Shown: one piece after another, positions 1,231 through 24,687 of the stretch | How the letters are laid out: each line of letters begins with the position of its first letter | Position numbering within the stretch: the first letter of the stretch is position 1 | Sequence record: KY684082 | Reading direction: 5' to 3' (one strand) | From: Shigella phage SFN6B | Length of the DNA: 43,036 bases | Translations under genes and position numbers: made by a program | Notes under the pieces: generated by a model | Told to the model about the DNA's origin: nothing | Databases searched by the model: none | The model's input: only the letters and a program-made list of their open reading frames with translations

Positions 1231-1575
1231 GAATCCCGAAGTAAGCAGTTAGGTAGTACACAGAAACAAACGCTTGACAAGTTCAGATTCACCTAGTAAC
1301 TTAGATAGCGAACAACGTAGTAAGCTGATTTGCGGGGAGGCCCAGTACCTTGACTGGTACGATGACGACTGAGCCTATACAATCAGTGTAGTAAAGAAGT
1401 AACGTCAAGAGCTGAGACGACAAACGGCTGGGGCGCTGAGGCGCTGCCCCTTAAAAGAATAGCGTCGAGACCTGAGCCACAGGTTCCACGGTTGTGCAGT
1501 GGGTAACAAGGTGAAAGATTAGCGTCCAGCTAGATACTGCTAGGGCGTTAATCTTTGACTTTGATGGAGGACACA

Positions 1576-1791
1576 ATGAAATATCGTGAGAAGTTAGCCC
1601 AACAATTCGCCGGACTTGAGAAGTTATCTGGTCCGGAATTGAGAAAACGCCGGGACGCGTTGAATCGTGCCGGGTATATGCGGATGAAACAATCTGCTAC
1701 ATTCAGCACGAACGTACGCGGTAAGACCAAAACAAGGGGAAGTAGCAAGGCCCCGCAAGGCTGGTACACTGCCGGGCAGTTCGGACGCTAA
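1576..1791 (+). CDS. Hypothetical early protein (basic, ~71 aa)
   Basis: ORF track 1555..1791; in-frame ATG at 1576 with GGAGGA a few nt upstream; first ORF after the non-coding leader. Confidence 0.45.
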   Translation: MKYREKLAQQFAGLEKLSGPELRKRRDALNRAGYMRMKQSATFSTNVRGKTKTRGSSKAPQGWYTAGQFGR

Positions 1792-1797
1792 TTACAG

Positions 1798-1828
1798 CCT
1801 ATAGCATCCTACGGGGTGCTATGTGAAG
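1798..1828 (+). promoter_or_regulatory. Conserved inverted-repeat element, copy 1 (CCTATAGCATCC-tacg-GGGTGCTATGTGAAG)
   Basis: 9-bp stem with 4-nt loop; same motif family at 2646..2675 and 9606..9637; ~39 bp upstream of the gene starting at 1867. Confidence 0.5.
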
Positions 1829-1866
1829 TAATTCGATAAGTAAACAACCAATCAAAGAGGTGTATC

Positions 1867-2451
1867 ATGACTAATATGACTAATGCAACCAAAAAAGTAT
1901 TCAAATTAACCGCCGCCGGCAATATCCGTAAAGCACTGCGCGATGTAGTAGAAGCCAAGCGTAATATCACTATCAGCGCTCTGTTCCACGGCCTGATTAG
2001 TAGCAACGTTTCTTGGGCGACGGATATGCAGCGCAGTGATGCCGCTGACTTTGATATGGTGCTGCGTACACTGCTGCCCATCAAGTTCAACAAGGAATCT
2101 GGCAAGTACGAGTTCCACGCTAAAAAGTGCTATGCGTCGGCTGAGAAGTTGGGTATTGAGCTGGATACTATGCGTCTGGACTATAAACAAGCTGACAAGC
2201 AAGGCCGTGAAGAGATTGTTGCCAGCTTCTACAGCGCTTGTATGGCCCTGTACAACGCTGAAGCGGATAAGGTGAAGAATGATGCCTTAGATGCCGATGC
2301 CGTGCGTCTGCAAGCTCTGGGGCGCGTTAAAAACGCCATCAAGAAAGCTAAGGAAACTGGTGTAAGCGATTCCGATCTGGTGAGTATGCTCATCAGTCAG
2401 GGTGTTGATGTGCGTGCTGTACTGGATGCAACTTTGAAGGTGGCGGCATGA
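1867..2451 (+). CDS. Hypothetical early protein (194 aa)
   Basis: ORF track; ATG preceded by AAAGAGG; no recognisable catalytic motif. Confidence 0.7.
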   Translation: MTNMTNATKKVFKLTAAGNIRKALRDVVEAKRNITISALFHGLISSNVSWATDMQRSDAADFDMVLRTLLPIKFNKESGKYEFHAKKCYASAEKLGIELDTMRLDYKQADKQGREEIVASFYSACMALYNAEADKVKNDALDADAVRLQALGRVKNAIKKAKETGVSDSDLVSMLISQGVDVRAVLDATLKVAA

Positions 2452-2525
2452 GCATGGAACTTGTAGGACTCATTCTAGTGATTGCGCTACTGGTCATAGT
2501 AATAGCAGAGTGCAGACGCTTATGA
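2448..2525 (+). CDS. Putative 25-aa hydrophobic mini-protein (MSMELVGLILVIALLVIVIAECRRL)
   Basis: Not in ORF track (too short); ATG overlaps the upstream stop in an ATGA arrangement; almost entirely a single TM-like helix. Confidence 0.3.
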   Translation: MSMELVGLILVIALLVIVIAECRRL

Positions 2526-2645
2526 TTATCAAGTGCTGGGCCTTATGCCCAGCGGCCAACGATACCGACGCCTTTGACGTGCCAACCCGGGGGCGCCATA
2601 ACAAGTGGTGCTACGAAGGTTTAGGGGAGTACGTATAGTGTCAAG

Positions 2646-2675
2646 CCTATAGCGCCTTAGTGGGCGCTATGTGAA
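2646..2675 (+). promoter_or_regulatory. Conserved inverted-repeat element, copy 2 (CCTATAGCGCC-ttagtg-GGCGCTATGTGAA)
   Basis: Perfect 8-bp stem ATAGCGCC/GGCGCTAT; ~25 bp upstream of the ATG at 2700. Confidence 0.5.
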
Positions 2676-2699
2676 TGCCACTAATAAGTGAGGTTTCAA

Positions 2700-2921
2700 A
2701 TGAAAGCAAAGATAATCCATCCGGGGCACGTACTCTGGCCCGTGTGGTGCAACCAAGTGCACCCAGAGTATAATTACACTGTGATGATATTCTCTGACCT
2801 AGATACTGATCAGGAATTCCCTTTAGACCTCGTTGATACTTATACCGAAACGGCGGCGCGCACTCTGCTGGACGCCGTGAATCTAGGTGTTATTACCGAC
2901 TGGAAGCAACTTTATGGCTAG
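2700..2921 (+). CDS. Hypothetical early protein (73 aa)
   Basis: ORF track 2688..2921; ATG at 2700 has GAGG upstream. Confidence 0.5.
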   Translation: MKAKIIHPGHVLWPVWCNQVHPEYNYTVMIFSDLDTDQEFPLDLVDTYTETAARTLLDAVNLGVITDWKQLYG

Positions 2922-3102
2922 TAAGTACGGGAAGAATCCTGAAACGCTGCTGATGCGTAGGCAGCAACCAACGATCGAGGGACTGGCGCGGGAGTACAGC
3001 GCGAAGGCAGCACTGCGTCAGCACTATGAGAAACAAGCGAAGCGCCTGGGTATGACCCTGCGCGGTTACTGTCAACGTTTTAATGTACGAGGTGTAGTAT
3101 GA
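2914..3102 (+). CDS. Hypothetical early protein (62 aa)
   Basis: ORF track 2887..3102 trimmed to the first ATG after the upstream gene (MASKYGKN...). Confidence 0.45.
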   Translation: MASKYGKNPETLLMRRQQPTIEGLAREYSAKAALRQHYEKQAKRLGMTLRGYCQRFNVRGVV

Positions 3103-3296
3103 ATGAACTAGTTAAGTATGATTTATACAGACGCCGGAATGGGTTACTGTACCGGGTGTCACTGCATGGCGCACTGTACGGGCCCGCTGAGTTTTACGCC
3201 ACCGGTTGTTGGGTACAATCACACCTAACAATTTTTGGTGTAATAACAGGTAGTGCGAGCACGCTAGTGGCCCGCAACGTAGTATTCAAGGATTAA
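3099..3296 (+). CDS. Hypothetical early protein (65 aa)
   Basis: ORF track; ATGA overlap with the upstream gene. Confidence 0.45.
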   Translation: MNELVKYDLYRRRNGLLYRVSLHGALYGPAEFYATGCWVQSHLTIFGVITGSASTLVARNVVFKD

Positions 3297-3298
3297 AT

Positions 3299-3643
3299 AT
3301 GCTCACAGTAGACGAAACAGCGCTACTGTGTTGGCGCTTGCTAGAGACGCAAGGCAAGTGCGGCTGCAGTTGGGAAACATTCAAAGAGGTCCCTAATGAA
3401 CTCAAGCGAATCGTACCGGTCGAGCGTAGGCCCCTCCGAGTTCGTAAGCAGGATTCTACGGTGGTGCTCACCGCATACCGGGAGTATACAGAATCTGCCG
3501 CGCGGCAGTTGCAAGAGCACCTTGCATTCAATGTGGTTGCAGCGCTACGGCAGTATGGATATAGGGGAGCTTTTACGCGATTTAAAGCCGCAGTGCGAGC
3601 CTATTACAAGCAGCAACAACTCTCTGCGTGGTATGCACGCTGA
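3299..3643 (+). CDS. Hypothetical early protein (114 aa)
   Basis: ORF track; AAGGA Shine-Dalgarno upstream. Confidence 0.55.
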   Translation: MLTVDETALLCWRLLETQGKCGCSWETFKEVPNELKRIVPVERRPLRVRKQDSTVVLTAYREYTESAARQLQEHLAFNVVAALRQYGYRGAFTRFKAAVRAYYKQQQLSAWYAR

Positions 3644-3689
3644 ACTTTTAACGTATGATGAGATACTAGTAACACCGGAGACAAAGAAA

Positions 3690-5405
3690 ATGCAAGAGAC
3701 TAACAAAGTAAACGTAGATGCAAACGTACCTGCAAATGTACCTGCCTACGAGGGTTGGACCATCAAATTTCCAGAAGGGGCCAACGCTCTTCCGCTGAAG
3801 AAACAGATGTACTCTTCCGGGGATTACTGGTGCCAACTTCCCTACCTATCAACTCGAGGCCATGCGCGCGTGCAAAGTAACAAAACCCGTGCGCTTTTGA
3901 ATGGCATTTATATGTGGTCAAAGGTGCTGCCGGGATATATTGTAGCACTTGGCAACTTTACAGCTGCAGGAGAGGAGTTGAGTGTATATACTGGGCCGCT
4001 GGGAGCAGTTGATATTAGTGACACTCTCCTGCATAAGCTCCTTGACCGTGCAAGTACCTGCGACCGGGCATTCGGTTTATACAGCAGAACCTTCTATGAT
4101 GGCCCTGACGTAGTTACAGAGCGCGTAGTAGAGGCGGTGCAATACTTCACTGGATACAAGGTGCACAAACAGGCTATAGAGTTGTTCGAAGAGATTATGC
4201 TAGCACCTACGTACTCCCTCCGGGCCAAATACACTCGCGGCGCGTACAGTGAGCGTGATGGAGATTACTGGGCAGCAACCTTGCTTATGCAGTTGCACGG
4301 GTTCGTGGTGTCTAGGTTTGCAATCCCGCTGGGTTTTGGATTCCGAAACGGTGAGCCTGTAGTAATGCTGGGGCAGCCGCGACTACACAAAGATTATGCT
4401 GCAATTACCGAGTATCGCTGCGTGGAGATGCGCGTGGGTAAATGGCTTGCTAACTACTACGGTAGTGGGGTAGACTTCCGGGAATGTATTGAAGACCTCA
4501 AAGCTATGAATGTAGACCCAACCACGTATCTTTGTAAGACCGAAGAGGAGTGGTACAACGCATACGAGAAAGGCCCGCGTAGCTGCATGACCGGATACAA
4601 CTTCGAGTATAGCCCGGTGCGTGTATACGCTACGACGAGTCACGGCTTGCCGGATAATGGGCTGCGCTTGTTCATCCAGTATACCGGTGAACTTTTTGGC
4701 GACGACTTTAAAGTGCAAGCCCGCGCTATCGTTAACATCGAAACCAACGAATACGTCCGTGCATACGGAGATGCTGCGGACGCCATTCTACGTGCTAATG
4801 GGTATGAGCACGATACAGACTGCTTAGATGGCGCACTACTGGCACGCATTCCGCACCCAGAGAATGAAGGTGCCGTGCTTATGCCGTACTTAGACGGGAA
4901 TCAAGATGGCGTGGATGAAGAGGGGAATAATGCGTTCGTTATCTGCGACTGCTATGACTATGAAGCACAGGATGCTGACGGGTACATTTGGATTGATGAC
5001 GATCGCTGCGCTTGTACAGAGTGTGGGGAACGTTTCGACGAGGAGGACATGTACGTATCTTGTGACGGTGGTTATGTATGCTCGCACTGTATCGGTGATA
5101 CTTACGTACAGGTAGTGGGCCGCAGCGTAGTGTACCCATCATGGGATTGCTCATGGTCTGACTACCACGACTCTTGGGTACTTGACCAGGACGTAGCAGA
5201 TTGTGCTGTAGAGGGTACAGTGCATGATGAAGAGCCAATGGTGTGCGTACAAGGGTACAATGTTCTGAGTGTGCATGCCGAAGAGCACCCAGTGCACGGT
5301 ATGATTCTCACGGAGTATGCTGCGTCCGTATTGGATGAACCCTACCTCGGTAATGAAGAAGCCGAAGAAGACAAGGAAGCTAAAGCAGAACAGGAGGCAG
5401 CTTAA
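3690..5405 (+). CDS. Large early protein of unknown function (~571 aa) with C-terminal Cys-rich zinc-ribbon-like cluster and acidic tail
   Basis: ORF track 3396..5405; start moved to ATG 3690 (GGAG upstream; avoids overlap with 3299..3643); alternative ATG at 3633. Cys cluster CDCYDY...CACTECGERF...CDGGYVCSHC; C-terminus EEAEEDKEAKAEQEAA. Confidence 0.65.
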   Translation: MQETNKVNVDANVPANVPAYEGWTIKFPEGANALPLKKQMYSSGDYWCQLPYLSTRGHARVQSNKTRALLNGIYMWSKVLPGYIVALGNFTAAGEELSVYTGPLGAVDISDTLLHKLLDRASTCDRAFGLYSRTFYDGPDVVTERVVEAVQYFTGYKVHKQAIELFEEIMLAPTYSLRAKYTRGAYSERDGDYWAATLLMQLHGFVVSRFAIPLGFGFRNGEPVVMLGQPRLHKDYAAITEYRCVEMRVGKWLANYYGSGVDFRECIEDLKAMNVDPTTYLCKTEEEWYNAYEKGPRSCMTGYNFEYSPVRVYATTSHGLPDNGLRLFIQYTGELFGDDFKVQARAIVNIETNEYVRAYGDAADAILRANGYEHDTDCLDGALLARIPHPENEGAVLMPYLDGNQDGVDEEGNNAFVICDCYDYEAQDADGYIWIDDDRCACTECGERFDEEDMYVSCDGGYVCSHCIGDTYVQVVGRSVVYPSWDCSWSDYHDSWVLDQDVADCAVEGTVHDEEPMVCVQGYNVLSVHAEEHPVHGMILTEYAASVLDEPYLGNEEAEEDKEAKAEQEAA

Positions 5406-6439
5406 TGTATGGTGTTGACCTTAAACTACTGACAAAGATACTAACAACGCACCGACCTAGCTGGGGCAGTACCAAATGGTTTGAGCCGCTACTTAGTAGC
5501 GCTCTTGCTGGTGCAGAACACTACGTTAGGGACGCTCATGGTAACTACTTTGTGCTTATTGGTAACTCTGAACAGAGTGACGTAGCATTTACATCACACC
5601 TCGACACAGTGGCCCGGCCTGGTAGTGCTGCGCCAGACATTGCAATCACTAACAAGGGCATAATGTTCCTGCGGAATCCACAGGTGGCGGATTGTCTAGG
5701 TGCAGACTGCGGTGCTGGTATCTACCTGATGCTAGAGATGATTAGGCACGGTGTGCATGGGCGCTACTGCTTCTTCGTGGATGAGGAGGTAGGTTGTGAG
5801 GGCAGCAGAGCATCAGCCAAAGATGATACAGGGTTCTGGACTGGGGTCAAGGCGATGATTAGCTTCGACCGCCGGGGTGATGGTATCATTACGCATCAAC
5901 GGTACATGCGCTGCTGCTCTGATACGTTCGCAAAGGAACTAGCGGCCCGACTAGGACGAACGGAGGCGCACTTACAGAAGGGGGTATACACGGACTCCGC
6001 TGAGTTCGTAAGTATTATCCCAGAGTGCACTAACGTAGGCGTAGGGTACATGCACGAACATACACCAGACGAGGTGCTGGACTTAAACATCCTTGGTCAG
6101 GTACTGGAGCGTGTACTGCAAGCAGGCACATTCAAGCACCTACCGATTGAACGGGATCCAAAGGTAGTGGAACCGGATGCGTGGTTATCTGCCTCTGCGT
6201 ATCCTTTTGATATGTCACTAGATGTTCCCTATGCGGAAGACCCGCATTTACTTGCAGCATTCAAGGAGGTGTCACAGCTTTCTAAGCAGCAACTGATTAG
6301 TTGGGTATTGGATAACCCAGCAAGGGCGGCGGAGTACATCATGGTGTTCTCCGATTATGGCTTCAAAGAGGAACTGATTGAACTTGGCACCCGAGTTGTA
6401 GAGGACTGGGGTGGATACGAGAATATTGTGGAGGGTTGA
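5405..6439 (+). CDS. Putative MH-clan (M20/M28/M42-like) zinc metallopeptidase
   Basis: Ordered motifs matching the co-catalytic zinc peptidase pattern: SHLDTV (H-x-D), LGADCGAG (bridging Asp), FFVDEEVGCEGS (Glu-Glu), later Asp and His (MHEHT). Motif-level reading only. Confidence 0.5.
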   Translation: MYGVDLKLLTKILTTHRPSWGSTKWFEPLLSSALAGAEHYVRDAHGNYFVLIGNSEQSDVAFTSHLDTVARPGSAAPDIAITNKGIMFLRNPQVADCLGADCGAGIYLMLEMIRHGVHGRYCFFVDEEVGCEGSRASAKDDTGFWTGVKAMISFDRRGDGIITHQRYMRCCSDTFAKELAARLGRTEAHLQKGVYTDSAEFVSIIPECTNVGVGYMHEHTPDEVLDLNILGQVLERVLQAGTFKHLPIERDPKVVEPDAWLSASAYPFDMSLDVPYAEDPHLLAAFKEVSQLSKQQLISWVLDNPARAAEYIMVFSDYGFKEELIELGTRVVEDWGGYENIVEG

Positions 6440-6441
6440 TT

Positions 6442-6912
6442 ATGTCTAAGTTTAAAGTTGGTGATAAAGTTGTCCGCAAATCACCCGACGACAGTTCATC
6501 GTTTAAGAAGCACCAAGGGGATTTTGATTACTACACAGTTACAGATATGTCCCCAAGCGGCCACTGGCTGCAGTTGGACAACTTTACTATCGACGATGAC
6601 TATTACCCGTGGTGTGCAACTAACTTCGAGCTGTACCAAGAGCTGGACGACGAGCTGCCGCCTGCACCAACCTCAGTACTCTATTACCATAGCACTGCGG
6701 ATGCATATAACTTGCAGCATATGATCGTGCAACCACATTGGGAGTTAGAGGGACATCTCAGTATCGCTATCGTGAAGAGCGGTAAAAAGTTCGATCCCCT
6801 GGCTTACGGTGATGCATTATCCCTCAACCTGGAACCCGATGCAGCCTTGCAGTTGGCACATGACCTATGCCGCATGGCTATGGATATTAAACGTAAGGAG
6901 AAAGCACAGTGA
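6442..6912 (+). CDS. Hypothetical protein (156 aa)
   Basis: ORF track 6436..6912; ATG at 6442 preceded by GGAGGG. Confidence 0.6.
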   Translation: MSKFKVGDKVVRKSPDDSSSFKKHQGDFDYYTVTDMSPSGHWLQLDNFTIDDDYYPWCATNFELYQELDDELPPAPTSVLYYHSTADAYNLQHMIVQPHWELEGHLSIAIVKSGKKFDPLAYGDALSLNLEPDAALQLAHDLCRMAMDIKRKEKAQ

Positions 6913-7370
6913 AGTATGAGTACAACCCGGATACCGGGGAGATACTGCGCTATGGGAAACCGGTAGGGTCTAAGGACTCCTCCGGGTACCTGGTGGTGTG
7001 GGTGGATGGTAAGTGCTGGCGTGCCCACCGTCTGGCCTACCACCTACAAGGCTTGCCGGTACCTAGACAAGTGGACCACATTAATGGAATCAAAGATGAT
7101 AACCGGTGGGTCAACTTACGTGCAGCCACTAACTCTCAGAACCAGTACAACCGCAAAGGTTGTGCTGCATCAGGAAACCTAAAGGGCGCATACTACAACA
7201 AGGCTATGCGCAACTGGTACTCCCTAATTCGTGTAGGTGGTAAGCGTAAATACTTAGGCTCTTACCGTTCGGAAGCTGAGGCCCACGCAGCCTATGTAAA
7301 GGCCTCTCAACAAATGCACGAGGGGTTTGATGTATGGACGAGCCGTGGCTTAGAGCCTGCAAGCGCCTAG
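6909..7370 (+). CDS. HNH homing endonuclease (HNH plus AP2-like DNA-binding region), paralog 1
   Basis: VDHINGIKDDNRWVNLRAATNSQN HNH core; GTG start with AAGGAG upstream; paralogs at 13318, 24732 and 35743. Confidence 0.8.
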   Translation: MKYEYNPDTGEILRYGKPVGSKDSSGYLVVWVDGKCWRAHRLAYHLQGLPVPRQVDHINGIKDDNRWVNLRAATNSQNQYNRKGCAASGNLKGAYYNKAMRNWYSLIRVGGKRKYLGSYRSEAEAHAAYVKASQQMHEGFDVWTSRGLEPASA

Positions 7371-8122
7371 CGATAGGGCAATCGAGTAGGTTCCGCTGCT
7401 GCGGCAAGACTCCTGCAGCGGTAATCTACAATAAACCTGACACCTGGAGCATGTACTGCTTTAGGTGTCACAAGACTGTTAATGAGCGCAAGCAGTACCA
7501 GCGCATACAGTTACAGGAAGAGCCGAGGGTGCAGCCCTCTGCACCTGCAGATGCAATTTGCATTAGCCAAGCGCCTGCGGAAACACAGAATTTTATTTAC
7601 GGATTCCTTGCTACAAAAGGAATCATGCCTGAAATGGTGGGGGATGCAGAATGGAGCAAAGAGAAACAGCGGATACTATTCCGTGCCGGGGGTGCTGTAC
7701 TGGGCCGCGCTGTTCATGCCCGACAGCAACCGAAGTGGGTAATGTACGGCCAGCCAATAGCTTTCGCTGTCGCGGCACCTGCCGTAGCACCGGCTGTAGC
7801 TGCGGCCGCACCTCTAAAGGTCGTGCTCACCGAGGACTTACTCTCAGCCCGGAAGATACAGCACGCAGTTACGAGCTACAGTGCGTTGAACGTGCAGGCT
7901 ATAGCTATGCTGGGTACACGCTTGCCCACGCAGCTAAGGGCCTGGCTGATTCAGAATCGCCCGGAAGTGATTCTGATGCTGGATAATGACCCGGCAGGGC
8001 ATGCTGGGGTAGTAGCAGCACGCAAAGCACTGCGCCCGTTCATGCAGTGCCGAGAACATTACTTCGCTGCGGATCCTAAGGACGCAGAAATCAAAGAGAT
8101 ACTGGAGGCGCTTAATGCTTAA
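7334..8122 (+). CDS. DNA primase (zinc-binding domain plus TOPRIM)
   Basis: CCGKT...CFRCHK zinc-finger pattern; TOPRIM-like VVLTEDLLSARK and VILMLDNDPAGHAG; sits immediately upstream of the helicase. Confidence 0.8.
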   Translation: MDEPWLRACKRLAIGQSSRFRCCGKTPAAVIYNKPDTWSMYCFRCHKTVNERKQYQRIQLQEEPRVQPSAPADAICISQAPAETQNFIYGFLATKGIMPEMVGDAEWSKEKQRILFRAGGAVLGRAVHARQQPKWVMYGQPIAFAVAAPAVAPAVAAAAPLKVVLTEDLLSARKIQHAVTSYSALNVQAIAMLGTRLPTQLRAWLIQNRPEVILMLDNDPAGHAGVVAARKALRPFMQCREHYFAADPKDAEIKEILEALNA

Positions 8123-8321
8123 GAACAAATACAGGGTAGTGCAGGACAACTACGCAGGATTTGAGGCGCAGGTTAAGTTCTGGTGGTTTCCGGTGCGCTG
8201 GTGGCAACTGTGCAGATCTGGGCGTGGGGTGGGTACTAACACGTACCCCAATCTTCATGAGGCAGAGAGCCTGTGTCGAGTACATGCCAGAAAGAGTACC
8301 ATCTACAAAGTGGAGGTTTAA
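8115..8321 (+). CDS. Hypothetical small protein (68 aa) between primase and helicase
   Basis: ORF track; exactly fills the gap between the two genes. Confidence 0.4.
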   Translation: MLKNKYRVVQDNYAGFEAQVKFWWFPVRWWQLCRSGRGVGTNTYPNLHEAESLCRVHARKSTIYKVEV

Positions 8322-9602
8322 TTGGACCTAATAGTAGTCAAGGCAATGTGCACACAGAAGGTCTGGAACCGACTGCGAGAGCAGATACCCAAGTCTATGC
8401 TAGCGCCAGATACATCAAACCTACTGGACTGGGTGGGGCTGTACTGGAACACGTACCCGGAGCACCAGGAGGTGCAGTGGGACGCGATGCAAAGCATGCT
8501 CAATCTCCGGGCCGGACACTTGTCCCGTGAAGAGCGGGTGATTATGGACGAGCTTATGCGGGGAGTACAAGCCGTGCCACAGGATTCTGTGGTGGGGATT
8601 GTTCAGACCCTGAATGAGTTAGCATACAGTGGGGAGGTTGCTGCACTTACACAGCGCTACCAAGACGGTGAGGAGGTTGATTACCTGCTGGAGATGAAGC
8701 ACCTCCAGCGCAAGTACGGTGATGGTGCTGCTGTTCATGATTCGCTACTGGAATGGGAGAGCGGAAGTGTTGATGAGATACTTGCCGCGACTGATGAAAG
8801 TGGCGGTCTTAAGCTGGGTGTGTTTGAGCAACTGTCGAGTAGCATTCGTGGGCTTCGCGGAGGTGATTGCATCGCCGTTGCTGCCCCTGTTGATTCTGGT
8901 AAAACTAGTCTACTCGCTGCTATTGCCGTGGACTTTGCTAAGCAGATGCAGCAACAACCCGAAGTATATGGGGACCGTCCGATTCTGTGGTTGGTTAACG
9001 AAGGCCCGGCGACGCGTACAGTGCCGAGGGTATATCAAGCGGCGCTGCATTGGACTTTGGCTGAGATTAAGGACAGGCACAGTAGGCAAGAGTTTGTGCC
9101 AGCCTATCTGGAGAAAGTAGGCAGGGCTGACCGCATCCGTATCAAGGCAGCGCACTCCCTTACGATGGCCCAAATCTCTACACTCATGGAGGAGATGCGT
9201 CCGGCGGTAATCATCATAGATATGGTGGCTAACATCCGTGGTGGTACTATGGAGAGCGAACACCAGAACCTAGAGGCGAAGTGGCAGGAGCTGCGTATCC
9301 TGGGGTGTGAGAATGACTGTGCTGTTATCGGTACTATGCAGCTTTCGCTTGAAGGTTACAACCTGCTGTTCCCGCCGCTCACGGCGATGAAGCAGAGTAA
9401 GATTGGTGTACAAGGTGCTTTGGATTTGGCGATTATGATGGGGTGCTTAGACAGGAACGAGCAGCCGCACATGCAAAACATTCGTGGTATCAGTACACCC
9501 AAGAACAAGATGGCGCTATCAGGCAAGGAATCGCTACTGCAATTCGAGGTAGCATTCGACCCAGGTAGATGCCGCTTTAACGAAGGGCAGATTAACAAGT
9601 GA
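8322..9602 (+). CDS. DnaB-like replicative DNA helicase
   Basis: Walker A AAPVDSGKTSLL and Walker B AVIIIDMV; TTG start 5 nt after GGAGG. Confidence 0.85.
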   Translation: MDLIVVKAMCTQKVWNRLREQIPKSMLAPDTSNLLDWVGLYWNTYPEHQEVQWDAMQSMLNLRAGHLSREERVIMDELMRGVQAVPQDSVVGIVQTLNELAYSGEVAALTQRYQDGEEVDYLLEMKHLQRKYGDGAAVHDSLLEWESGSVDEILAATDESGGLKLGVFEQLSSSIRGLRGGDCIAVAAPVDSGKTSLLAAIAVDFAKQMQQQPEVYGDRPILWLVNEGPATRTVPRVYQAALHWTLAEIKDRHSRQEFVPAYLEKVGRADRIRIKAAHSLTMAQISTLMEEMRPAVIIIDMVANIRGGTMESEHQNLEAKWQELRILGCENDCAVIGTMQLSLEGYNLLFPPLTAMKQSKIGVQGALDLAIMMGCLDRNEQPHMQNIRGISTPKNKMALSGKESLLQFEVAFDPGRCRFNEGQINK

Positions 9603-9605
9603 CTT

Positions 9606-9637
9606 CCCTAGCGCCTTCCTAGAGGGCGCTATGTAGG
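9606..9637 (+). promoter_or_regulatory. Conserved inverted-repeat element, copy 3 (CCCTAGCGCC-ttcctagag-GGCGCTATGTAGG)
   Basis: Same motif family as 1798 and 2646; ~27 bp upstream of the DNA polymerase ATG. Confidence 0.5.
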
Positions 9638-9663
9638 TACATGGTATGGGAGGTATAAGTAGT

Positions 9664-12027
9664 ATGACAACCAGTATAATGCACATCGATTTGGAGACAG
9701 AGAACCATGAATATTATGGCTCTAAAGCAAGCCCATACTGCCCTGACAACTATGTTGTTGAGTCAGCATGGCGTATCGACACAACACAAGCTGACGGTAC
9801 TACCACTGTTGGCGCGACTCAATCAGTGCGCTTCAATTCAAGAGCTGATTTCTTGGCGGGAAACAGTGCAGCAGAAGGCTGCCGGTGGTTTCATATTCCA
9901 GAGGATTGTTGGCTTATTGTTGCACACAATGCCGCCTATGAAATCTCCTGGTTCCTCACGTATCAGAGACAGCAGTTCGAAGCCTTCCTCAAGCGCGGCG
10001 GCAGGGTGTTCTGCACGATGCACGGAGAATACATCGCCTCGGACTTTCAGAGCATGTATCCGTCACTGGACGAGACGGCTCCTAAGTACGGCGGTACGCA
10101 CAAAGTAGATGGGGTTAAGATTCTCTGGGAGCAAGGTGTATTAACCTCCCAGATTGATCCTATGCTATTGCATGACTACCTAGTGAATGGGGATATACCG
10201 AACACGGCCCTGTGCTTCTACGGCCAGTGCGCTACGTTCGCCCAGCGTAATCAGATGCAGTACGTGTGGGAGCGTATGGATGCGTTGCTGGCATGGGCAT
10301 ACTGTGAATGGTTTGGACTGTTCGTGAATATGCCTATTGCTCGCAAGAACCAAGAGGAGCAGGAGCAGCGTATCCTGGAGATTAAACAGGAACTGCAGCA
10401 GTACATACCGAAGGACTTGCCGGAGACCCTGGATTTCAACTTCGGTTCAGACTTTCATATGTCCGCACTGGTGTACGGCGGGCCTATCAAGTACCGCAAG
10501 AAGGTTCCCTATGACCCGCCGCAGTATGTTAAAGACGATTACTACCGCCTATTAGATGGTGGGAAGGTTCTGTGCAGGAACGTGGGTGGAGATGACTGGG
10601 ACCAGAAGGTAGTTAAGTATGCCTCAGGGAAGAACAAGGGCCTTCCCAAAGTATTCCGCCTTGATACAGAGGAGGAGAAACTCAAATGGGAGGACGACCT
10701 ATACTTCTGCCCGGGCCTGGTTAACATCCAAGAACTTCCAGAGGTGCTCCGAGAGAAGTATGCTGAGCGTGGGGAATTCAGGCAAGCACGGTGCCTGCAG
10801 GATGGGACACCAATCTACAGCACCAGCACAGATGCAATGGAAGCCCTAGCACGTAATGGATTTGAGTTCTGTCGATTGGTGAACGAACTAGGCGCTCTGG
10901 AGAAGGACACAGGAACCTACTACCTGCGAACAGAGTACAACGAAGATGGGTCAGTTAAAAAGACCTCGGGCATGCTTCAGTACGTCATACCTCAGAACTC
11001 CGATGACTCAGGTATTATTCACCACCGCCTTAATACTTGTGCTACTGTTACCGGGCGACTATCTGGCTCTAACCCAAACCTCCAGAATCTCCCGCGAGAT
11101 GGAACTAGTAAAGTAAAACAGATGTTCACTTCCCGTTTCGGTGAATCCGGTCGTATCACTGAGGTTGACTACTCCGCCCTGGAAGTGGTTATGTCTTGTG
11201 TTCACACCGGAGACAGGAAGCTGTTGGGTTTGCTGCAGAACGGCACGGATATGCACTGCTACCGCCTAGCGTTCAAGGAGGGCAAAACCTACGAAGAGAT
11301 GTATGACCTCTGCCACAACGCCAATGGGCCGGACTACAAATACTGGAAGCAGCAGCGTACGGACATTAAGCCTCCGAGCTTTGCTGCACAGTACGGGGCT
11401 ACGGCTAAAGGGATTGCGTTTGCTACAGGCTGTACAGTGGAGTATGCGCAGTCGTTCCTGGATAACGAGGCGAAGCTGTTCCCAGACACCATCGGATTCC
11501 GGGCGGTAGTGAAGGAGGAGGTAGAGCGCACCGGGGCGGCTGGGCGCATTTACCGGGAGCAGGCGGATGATGGCAGCTACCGCATCTACCGCATTGGCAC
11601 CTGGACCAGCCCAGCTGGTGCACGGTACAGCTTCCGCCAGAAGGAGCAGTGGAAGGAAGTAGTCCCTGGCCAGCGCAAACAAAAGGTGATGGACTACAAA
11701 GAAACTGAGATGGCTAACTACTGGTGTCAGGGTGAGGCATTCTTCCTGATGGCGGTAGCAGCTGGTATGGTTCTGCGTGCAATGCTGGCGCGTGATTGGT
11801 TCGATAATCAGGTGTGTTTGATTACGAACGTACACGATGCATTGTATCTGGATAGTGCTAATCCGGAAGTAGGCAGAGAAGCGAGCCTGTTGGTTAAGCA
11901 GTGTATGGAGGATGCGCCTAAGCGTATTCACCAGCTCTGGCCTAACTACGGCATCATTGGCGAAGTCCCGTTCCCAGCGGAAGCTGAAATGGGTACAAGC
12001 ATGTACAGTAAGGAGAAAGTAGAATGA
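9664..12027 (+). CDS. DNA polymerase, family A (T7 gp5-like)
   Basis: Exo motif HIDLETE; pol motif A DYSALEVV, motif B KPPSFAAQYG, motif C NVHDALYLD; track start 9646, ATG 9664 preferred because of GGGAGG upstream. Confidence 0.9.
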   Translation: MTTSIMHIDLETENHEYYGSKASPYCPDNYVVESAWRIDTTQADGTTTVGATQSVRFNSRADFLAGNSAAEGCRWFHIPEDCWLIVAHNAAYEISWFLTYQRQQFEAFLKRGGRVFCTMHGEYIASDFQSMYPSLDETAPKYGGTHKVDGVKILWEQGVLTSQIDPMLLHDYLVNGDIPNTALCFYGQCATFAQRNQMQYVWERMDALLAWAYCEWFGLFVNMPIARKNQEEQEQRILEIKQELQQYIPKDLPETLDFNFGSDFHMSALVYGGPIKYRKKVPYDPPQYVKDDYYRLLDGGKVLCRNVGGDDWDQKVVKYASGKNKGLPKVFRLDTEEEKLKWEDDLYFCPGLVNIQELPEVLREKYAERGEFRQARCLQDGTPIYSTSTDAMEALARNGFEFCRLVNELGALEKDTGTYYLRTEYNEDGSVKKTSGMLQYVIPQNSDDSGIIHHRLNTCATVTGRLSGSNPNLQNLPRDGTSKVKQMFTSRFGESGRITEVDYSALEVVMSCVHTGDRKLLGLLQNGTDMHCYRLAFKEGKTYEEMYDLCHNANGPDYKYWKQQRTDIKPPSFAAQYGATAKGIAFATGCTVEYAQSFLDNEAKLFPDTIGFRAVVKEEVERTGAAGRIYREQADDGSYRIYRIGTWTSPAGARYSFRQKEQWKEVVPGQRKQKVMDYKETEMANYWCQGEAFFLMAVAAGMVLRAMLARDWFDNQVCLITNVHDALYLDSANPEVGREASLLVKQCMEDAPKRIHQLWPNYGIIGEVPFPAEAEMGTSMYSKEKVE

Positions 12028-12245: not shown

Positions 12246-12407
12246 TGATAGGTGTACCCTCGGGTGGTGTAGGGGGTTAGGGTAACATGAGAATTAGCCA
12301 GGGTCAAGTAGATAATTAAATAAAATTATTTGTTGACTCTGGCTTGATTCTGTGATTTACCGAGAATTAATGTGATACGAGTAGGAACAACATAAGAGAG
12401 GCAAACC

Positions 12408-20175: not shown

Positions 20176-20182
20176 AAATTTA

Positions 20183-20199
20183 ATGTTACAGGAGTAGGA
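20183..20199 (+). promoter_or_regulatory. Candidate phage-RNAP promoter, copy 2 of exact 17-mer ATGTTACAGGAGTAGGA
   Basis: Sits between the RNAP stop and the first downstream gene, abutting its ATG. Confidence 0.45.
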
Positions 20200-24650: not shown

Positions 24651-24687
24651 GCCCCTGGTGCCTTCGGGTGCCGGGGGCTTTTTTTTG
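24651..24687 (+). terminator. Rho-independent terminator after the capsid region
   Basis: GCCCCTGGTGCC-ttcg-GGTGCCGGGGGC forms a 12-bp stem (with G-U pairs) and UUCG loop, followed by T(9). Confidence 0.8.

Follow-up and report, generated by a model that had tools for sequence, protein, structure and literature searches.

The genome of Shigella phage SFN6B (sequence record KY684082) carries, upstream of three early or middle genes, a short palindromic element, one copy of which lies at 2646-2675, and the question raised by this locus is what the element does and whether it acts as DNA or as RNA. The window analysed here (43,036 nt) is the complete 43-kb genome of a KP34-like phage (Drulisvirus, Autographiviridae) whose + strand carries all long open reading frames. 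Bases 1500-9800 are 88-92% identical to the Escherichia phages PSK2, Minorna and ZH5 and to the Klebsiella phages KPV811 and Kpn13; the 249 related records are mostly Klebsiella phages.

A literature search by the sequence of the element returned Eriksson et al. 2015 only (PMC4411677), where a MEME motif with the consensus AGCCTATAGCGTCCTACGGGGCGCTATGTGAA was named a "putative phage promoter", nick sites being the alternative, at two early-region sites each in KP34, SU503, SU552A, NTUH-K2044-K1-1 and F19. This putative promoter and the element are the same sequence; its extension into a longer hairpin, its covariation, a third and diverged copy and the occurrence in SP6-like and P22-like phages, all of which are reported below, were not part of that description. 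Subsequently, a linear PCR fragment with the motif yielded no RNA with purified KP34 RNA polymerase, and the actual strong promoter of this enzyme was determined as T(A/G)ATGTTACAGGAGTA (Lu et al. 2019, PMC6834552).

The initial annotation placed three copies at 1798-1828, 2646-2675 and 9606-9637. All three are present at these places, two of them being highly significant and the third diverged:

1796-1827, + strand: copy 1, AGCCTATAGCATCCTACGGGGTGCTATGTGAA
2644-2675, + strand: copy 2, AGCCTATAGCGCCTTAGTGGGCGCTATGTGAA
9604-9637, + strand: copy 3, TTCCCTAGCGCCTTCCTAGAGGGCGCTATGTAGG

A repeat search paired 1796-1827 with 2644-2675 (family D16, 32 nt, 81% identity). With a covariance model built from relatives (R1), copy 1 scored 50.5 bits (E 2e-13) and copy 2 scored 45.9 bits (E 5e-12), while a model including the lower stem described below (R2) gave 73.4 and 59.7 bits, respectively. 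The R1 score of copy 3 was weak (only 12.2 bits, E 0.19). Because the segments TAGCGCCTT and GGGCGCTATGT are identical between copies 2 and 3, and because copy 3 is kept at the junction of the helicase and DNA polymerase genes in 14 related loci and in KP34 (9471-9493), copy 3 (9609-9631) was treated as a diverged member. The following features surround the copies:

1202-1230, + strand: sigma-70-type early promoter (TTGACA-17-TAGATT), from a sequence scan; context, outside the element
1576-1791, + strand: gene 1 (71 aa, KP34 gp1 homologue), its TAA stop codon (1789-1791) inside the lower stem of copy 1
1867-2451, + strand: gene 2 (194 aa, 92% identical to KP34 gp2), first gene 3′ of copy 1
2510-2638, + strand: 42-aa open reading frame (KP34 gp3 homologue, blastp E 3e-15), its TAG stop codon (2636-2638) overlapped by the lower stem of copy 2
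2700-2921, + strand: 73-aa gene (KP34 gp5 homologue), first gene 3′ of copy 2
8322-9602, + strand: DNA helicase gene (annotation of relatives), its TGA stop codon (9600-9602) inside the lower stem of copy 3
9646-12027, + strand: DNA polymerase gene, first gene 3′ of copy 3

The spacing of 25-40 bp to the next gene start given earlier holds for copy 1 (39 nt to ATG 1867) and copy 2 (25 nt to ATG 2700), and for copy 3 it amounts to 9 or 27 nt depending on whether ATG 9646 or ATG 9664 is used. The latter is likely to be the true start of the DNA polymerase gene, judging by its better Shine-Dalgarno sequence (GGGAGG before it). The sequence of the promoter at 1202-1230 was listed as a host promoter by Eriksson et al. 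2015 (PMC4411677). It is predicted to be the source of a host-polymerase transcript carrying copies 1-3, and no terminator was found between it and the elements in the open reading frame map and the terminator scan.

Other features were observed in the same early region. A leader hairpin of 19 bp (1509-1560, -27.6 kcal/mol) lies just 5′ of the Shine-Dalgarno sequence of gene 1, in a region that contains repeated AAGAWTAGCGTC motifs (1456-1540). An open reading frame of 23 codons (2454-2525), which overlaps the stop codon of gene 2 (ATGA), encodes the very hydrophobic peptide MELVGLILVIALLVIVIAECRRL; nothing is annotated at the matching interval of the close relative Minorna.

The element was then folded together with more flanking sequence. 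The palindrome had been taken as an inverted repeat of 8-9 bp with a loop of 4-9 nt; it is real, with sizes corrected to an upper stem of 9-10 bp, U·G pairs counted, under a loop of 3-4 nt, and with a lower stem that had been missed. Once this lower stem is counted, the full elements comprise approximately 45-50 nt (1790-1833, 2636-2683 and 9599-9642) and follow a common plan, which from bottom to top consists of a lower stem of 7-9 bp (6 bp in copy 1), an AG/AA internal loop, a C-G pair, a C×U mismatch, a 10-bp upper stem and the loop:

1790-1833, + strand: copy 1, full hairpin, lower stem 1790-1795/1828-1833 (AAUUAC/GUAAUU)
1796-1799 and 1824-1827, + strand: copy 1, centre, 2x2 loop AG 1796-1797 / AA 1826-1827, pair C1798-G1825, mismatch C1799×U1824
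1800-1809/1814-1823, + strand: copy 1, upper stem of 10 bp including U1800·G1823 and U1807·G1816, UACG tetraloop 1810-1813
2636-2683, + strand: copy 2, full hairpin, lower stem 2636-2640 and 2642-2643 with 2676-2677 and 2679-2683
2644-2647 and 2672-2675, + strand: copy 2, centre, loop AG 2644-2645 / AA 2674-2675, pair C2646-G2673, mismatch C2647×U2672
2648-2657/2662-2671, + strand: copy 2, upper stem, loop UAGU 2658-2661
9599-9642, + strand: copy 3, full hairpin, lower stem 9599-9605 with 9635-9638 and 9640-9642
9607-9608 and 9632-9633, + strand: copy 3, centre, mismatch C9608×U9632, pair C9607-G9633, and a 1x1 mismatch
9609-9618/9622-9631, + strand: copy 3, upper stem (UAGCGCCUUC/GAGGGCGCUA), loop CUA

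Copy 1 thus reads AAUUAC-[AG]-C-[C]-UAUAGCAUCC-UACG-GGGUGCUAUG-[U]-G-[AA]-GUAAUU, the upper stem beginning with U·G. The folding energies are -18.8 kcal/mol (z -4.5) for copy 1, -20.6 kcal/mol (z -3.6) for copy 2 and -20.2 kcal/mol (z -2.4) for copy 3. All three lower stems overlap, with their 5′ strand, the stop codon that ends the preceding open reading frame.

For the analysis of conservation, IMG/VR was scanned with an exact pattern, which yielded 52 related loci. The scan of the genome and its relatives with a motif model, which had been suggested as a check, showed that the element is conserved in related phages: 86 strong R1 matches were found in these 52 loci, with 1-3 matches per locus and always on one strand within a locus. 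A total of 64 distinct homologous sequences of 54 nt were aligned without gaps and compared with a structure of 20 pairs. In this alignment 90.8% of the cells are paired (73.6% in shuffles), double (compensatory) changes occur in 13 of the 20 pairs, and none of 500 shuffles equalled the observed covariation; when the partner columns were slid against each other, pairing fell to 25-43%. The lower stem provides an unbiased test of pairing, since it lies outside the search pattern: out of 7 possible pairs, its 20 haplotypes form on average 6.05 with the partner strand of the same sequence vs 3.26 with the partners of others. Even the constant base of the stem changes in a compensatory manner, namely from U-A to C-G in loci L036 and L037 (ACAG/CUGU) and from C-G to U-A in phage SP6 (AUAGU/ACUAU), while the central mismatch is preserved as such, with C×A instead of C×U in locus L027. 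The two U·G wobble pairs are present in 64 and 62 of the 64 sequences, and the antisense strand of the copies in the window folds 4-6 kcal/mol worse than the sense strand. As the wobbles correspond to C·A mismatches on the other strand, these observations together with the covariation indicate that the element is an RNA structure of the sense strand and not a site in double-stranded DNA.

The same observations bear on the proposal that the palindrome is a signal at the DNA level, i.e. a promoter, an operator for a dimeric regulator, or a hairpin promoter that needs supercoiled DNA. The copies are palindromic and lie 25-40 bp 5′ of gene starts, CTATAG/CTATG faintly resembles positions -4 to +1 of T7/SP6-type promoters, and the assay of Lu et al. 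2019 used a linear PCR fragment only. However, a site in duplex DNA does not predict compensatory changes throughout 20 pairs together with strand-specific U·G pairs. The operator suggested by the initial annotation is specifically disfavoured, because the inner positions of the palindrome and its flanks covary for pairing, the asymmetric U·G is kept and the minus strand folds worse. The suggested promoter element fared no better: it has no sigma-70 hexamers, it is unlike the KP34-type promoter T(A/G)ATGTTACAGGAGTA, to which no similarity was detected, and the fragment carrying it was silent with the KP34 polymerase (PMC6834552), whose real promoter family differs in sequence. In a scan for -35/-10 hexamers with 16-18 bp spacing, no match on the + strand covered any copy, and matches in the region were no commoner than in shuffles. 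Moreover, P22, which has no phage RNA polymerase, carries the element. A DNA-level signal of any of these kinds is therefore regarded as very unlikely.

On the minus strand, a sigma-70 promoter read by eye (TTCACA-18-TATAGG) was rejected, as it does not have the essential T at -7. Copies of the KP34-type promoter T(A/G)ATGTTACAGGAGTAGGA were observed at 716-734, 20181-20199 and 32786-32804, i.e. at the left end, right after the RNA polymerase gene and inside the gene of the 1420-aa internal virion protein; a variant at 12368-12386 differs at 3 positions.

The initial annotation also considered a short processing or terminator hairpin. Processing agrees best with the evidence, as discussed below, while termination was rejected: the 3′ flanks GUGAAGUAAUU, GUGAAUGCCAC and GUAGGUACAUG contain no U-tract, and the copies are absent from the terminator scan. 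A canonical intrinsic terminator is present elsewhere in the genome, at 24651-24686 after the major capsid region (GCCCCUGGUGCC-UUCG-GGUGCCGGGGGC followed by U8), and corresponds to the annotated terminator of KP34.

The element is also found in phages that are not related to SFN6B. A relaxed scan of viral contigs, in which most of the matches listed were chance, provided the leads to P22 and UAB_Phi78, and subsequent model searches located the element in SP6 (2363-2416, E 1e-16; SP6 was absent from the first model), in the SP6-like phage UAB_Phi78 (2531-2583) and in the PL operon of P22, between orf87 and gene 17 on the PL-sense strand. These three have the same core and different but complementary stems; in the P22 version the lower stem has just 2 bp and is followed by a 4x4 loop. 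Throughout Drulisvirus, SP6-like and P22-like phages, a central part of approximately 17 nt (AGCCUAUAG / CUAUGUGAA) is nearly invariant and both stems are free to vary. In SFN6B, KP34, SP6, UAB_Phi78 and the PL operon of P22 the element is intergenic, 2-7 nt past a stop codon, in an early region read by the host polymerase. Comparison by blastp of all flanking proteins of these five phages revealed no homology between the lineages; what they have in common is the host family and a region transcribed by the host polymerase. Since no flanking gene is common to the lineages, the distribution suggests that a host factor shared by Enterobacteriaceae is involved. A mobile cassette with a linked gene was rejected on the basis of the same blastp result.

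A search with a pattern of the SP6-type variant returned SP6 itself only, and the GenBank records of SP6 have nothing annotated at the site of the element. A scan of bacterial genomes gave mainly chance matches and coding sequence and added one P22-like prophage (Atlantibacter). Of 5426 complete E. coli genomes, 92 have prophages with a copy of the P22 type that, flanks included, is 90-99% identical; these copies are always in the chromosome and mostly unannotated. SP6 (L294) contains a second hairpin at approximately 3324-3366, directly 5′ of the SP6 RNA polymerase gene, which is the place of R1 in T7. It has the layout of a T7 R site, with a 6-bp lower stem, a small internal loop and a 10-bp upper stem (fold z -3.8), and is more diverged, with a partial likeness to the family core (UUAUAGAGCGUC...GGCGCUC). 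A start-stop mini-ORF on the 3′ side at the base of the stem (AUG-UGA; AUG-UAG in copy 3) was considered and rejected: its AUG is paired, it has no Shine-Dalgarno sequence, the second SP6 hairpin does not contain it, and it is broken in the variants GUGUGA (L036, L037), AUGAGA (L027) and AUGUCG (L046).

RNase III had been set aside in the initial annotation with the argument that the stems are too short. This argument fails once the lower stem is included, as the helix then extends over approximately two turns and has the layout of the RNase III sites of phage T7. The T7 early sites were placed at the positions reportedly given by Dunn & Studier 1983; R0.3 at nt 890 agrees with UAU|GAU in the sequence. 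Folding of the T7 intergenic regions with R0.3, R0.5, R1, R1.1 and R1.3 gave upper stems of 9-13 bp, an internal loop and lower stems of 5-7 bp, and compared with these five folds, irregular hairpins of two turns were found for the three SFN6B copies and the copies of SP6, UAB_Phi78 and P22. Like the T7 sites, the element is located in intergenic regions on the sense strand of early polycistronic RNA made by the host polymerase, and it shares with them a hairpin of approximately two turns with an upper stem of about 10 bp containing U·G, a loop of 3-5 nt, a non-Watson-Crick centre and a lower stem of 5-9 bp. In both cases, the copies within a genome keep the core while the stems vary, and the conservation of the T7 core around the bubble is likewise unexplained.

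At the sequence level, the element is collinear in an alignment with T7 R0.3 and R0.5. UAB_Phi78 and R0.3 have the 10-mer GAUAUUCACU in common, the segment ..UAUG..AUAUUCACU of UAB_Phi78 lies within this collinear alignment, and its lower stem is of the GUGAU/AUCAC type as in R0.5. R2 has no match in the first 7 kb of T7; as the family models miss the T7 sites, a single short alignment is what speaks for homology to them. There are also clear differences. The T7 core is ACUCAAGG / CCUUUAUGAU, compared with AGCCUAUAG / CUAUGUGAA in the element, and T7 has an asymmetric bubble of 4/5 nt where the centre of the element is nearly helical (2x2 loop, one pair, 1x1 mismatch), so that cutting of both strands is conceivable. 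Furthermore, cleavage is established for the T7 sites whereas it is predicted from structure for the element, which moreover occurs in a temperate, P22-like phage.

The element was also compared with the known substrate preferences of the enzyme. RNase III has a footprint of approximately 22 bp with a measuring distance of 11 nt, and the rules derived in vivo comprise G/C pairs between the scissile bonds with A/U flanks (W-S-S-W) and an A-U or U-A pair at position D (Altuvia et al. 2018, PMC6212723). The distance of the conserved CC is 11 positions to the loop and approximately 9-11 to the base, which puts the CC at the centre of a footprint of approximately 22 bp. RCCU agrees with W-S-S-W, and position D is U-A, but C-G in two phages; at position D′, roughly half of the copies, copy 1 among them, have G-C or C-G, and such pairs are reported to weaken binding of RNase III in vitro. 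Given that only around one copy in two conforms at D′ and that two phages have C-G at D, the fit to the RNase III rules is partial.

Taking structure, strand and position together with the likeness to T7, we infer RNase III as the enzyme: by analogy, it seems somewhat probable that the element is a host RNase III processing signal in early polycistronic mRNA, forming a candidate new sequence family of the T7 kind, in which membership is provisional. No transcriptome study of a Drulisvirus and no assignment of the element to RNase III were found in the literature search, nor were transcript-end data for the Drulisvirus, SP6-like or P22 copies.

If the element is a processing signal of this type, the hairpin would form in the sense-strand early and middle polycistronic transcript, which would be made by the host RNA polymerase, starting at promoters near 1200-1300, and later on by the phage polymerase, starting at its promoter at 716. 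The footprint of RNase III of approximately 22 bp would be centred on the core 5′-RCC|UAU-3′ opposite 3′-AAG|UGU-5′. The cut on the 3′ side is predicted after GUG where GCUAUGUG is followed by AA, i.e. between G1825 and A1826, between G2673 and A2674 and between G9633 and U9634, and a further cut may occur on the 5′ side after AGCC. The consequences that we infer are shorter mRNAs, which would comprise gene 1, the block of genes 2-4, the block from the 73-aa gene to the helicase gene, and the block starting with the DNA polymerase gene. With a cut on the 3′ side only, the upstream message would end in the stable 10-bp upper hairpin, which may be protective, and the downstream message would begin 25-40 nt before the start codon. 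As ribosomes terminate on the lower stem, translation of the upstream open reading frame could modulate cutting.

RNase III needs little specific sequence and would not by itself explain why about 17 nt are almost invariant in three lineages of phages. This near-invariance, with its maintained mismatch, is the signature of sequence-specific recognition, and no Rfam family matches the element: the Rfam covariance models gave nothing at gathering score in the whole window and nothing at E up to 10 in 1700-2750, and at the P22 element there was no match on the element itself and two chance-level hits (E 1.4 and 4.6) downstream. The hairpin might accordingly be recognised specifically by an RNA-binding factor other than RNase III, be it a host protein common to Klebsiella, E. 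coli and Salmonella or an early phage protein, with RNase III uninvolved; this factor would then control translation, decay by another nuclease (e.g. RNase E on the A/U-rich 3′ flank) or transcription elongation. Since no flanking protein is common to the lineages, a phage-encoded partner is unlikely, and a helix of two turns whose conserved part is exactly central agrees better with an enzyme acting on double-stranded RNA. The RNase III sites of T7 are, moreover, conserved in sequence in a like manner. We know of no host RNA-binding protein with the motif of the element. Recognition by such another factor is on the whole considered unlikely. A more specific form of this idea, that the centre (AG/AA loop, C-G, C×U, U·G and AUAG/CUAU) is where an as yet unrecognised, sequence-specific RNA-binding factor of Enterobacteriaceae docks, or serves as a decoy for a host defence nuclease, and that KP34-, SP6- and P22-like phages acquired it horizontally to control or protect their early transcripts, is speculative and appears rather more doubtful still. 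An RfaH ops element, a CRISPR-repeat mimic, an attC-like site and a REP element were rejected as readings, as none of them is known to have a convincing likeness to the element.

Variation between the copies in relatives was considered with respect to recombination. Three loci, L008 (9140-9176), L032 (215-251) and L039 (9965-10001), contain a single hybrid element, whose 5′ flank is that of copy 1 and whose 3′ flank is that of copy 2. Such hybrid flanks indicate that recombination between the repeats deleted the intervening genes, which are lost in these loci, and the lower stem of the hybrids forms only 1 of 7 pairs. Three other loci (L024, L038 and L052) have three copies, two of which are 88 nt apart.

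These hybrids, the variable gene content between the copies among relatives and the presence of the element in unrelated phages would be compatible with repeats that serve as recombination boundaries or single-strand nick sites for early cassettes, the RNA fold being incidental or a passive 3′ stabiliser; nick sites were raised by Eriksson et al. 2015 (PMC4411677). Recombination, however, needs sequence identity alone and leaves the complementary but differing lower stems, the wobbles and the mismatch unexplained. Given their broken lower stems, the hybrids look like by-products of recombination, and there is no U-tract for termination. Recombination or nicking as the function of the repeats is consequently judged most unlikely. 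A comparable arrangement, reportedly described by Arbiol et al. in 2010, is that of the PeSL cassettes of T4-type phages, which are said to combine an early promoter and a stem-loop and to flank mobile early genes. Similar to these, the short conserved stem-loop repeats in Drulisvirus bracket variable early genes and recombine with each other, as in the three hybrids. The element differs in having no attached promoter, in being a two-stem RNA with strand-specific wobbles, and in being common to unrelated phage families.

With processing by RNase III as the preferred reading, a motif that had been without a function since its assignment as a promoter failed in 2019 now has a proposed and testable one. 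If true, phiKMV-type phages, which rely on the host polymerase for approximately 17 kb of early and middle genes, would share the processing of their early mRNA by RNase III with T7, where it is textbook knowledge. The 30-nt core in SP6-like and in temperate P22-like phages points to a common host factor or to the horizontal spread of a small RNA module. As Drulisviruses of Klebsiella are a common chassis for therapy and engineering, cut sites in early transcripts and repeat-driven gene deletion bear on genome design.

Further repeats and hairpins were observed outside the element. The non-coding left end contains arrays of short direct repeats spanning 335-995, namely GTGCTATC(G/C)CTA at 335-359, 559-598, 668-694 and 968-995, and GGCACTAGGGA at 405-442. 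The sequence GTGCTAT of the left-end repeats also forms the 3′ arm of copy 1, and no functional link between the two was found. In the 160-nt gap after the DNA polymerase block, just 5′ of the promoter-like sequence at 12368, an almost perfect hairpin of approximately 27 bp with an AU-rich apex and without a U-tract is located at 12290-12350 (-45.5 kcal/mol, z -4.6), which, judging by its predicted fold, could be another double-stranded RNA substrate or a barrier for the switch between polymerases.
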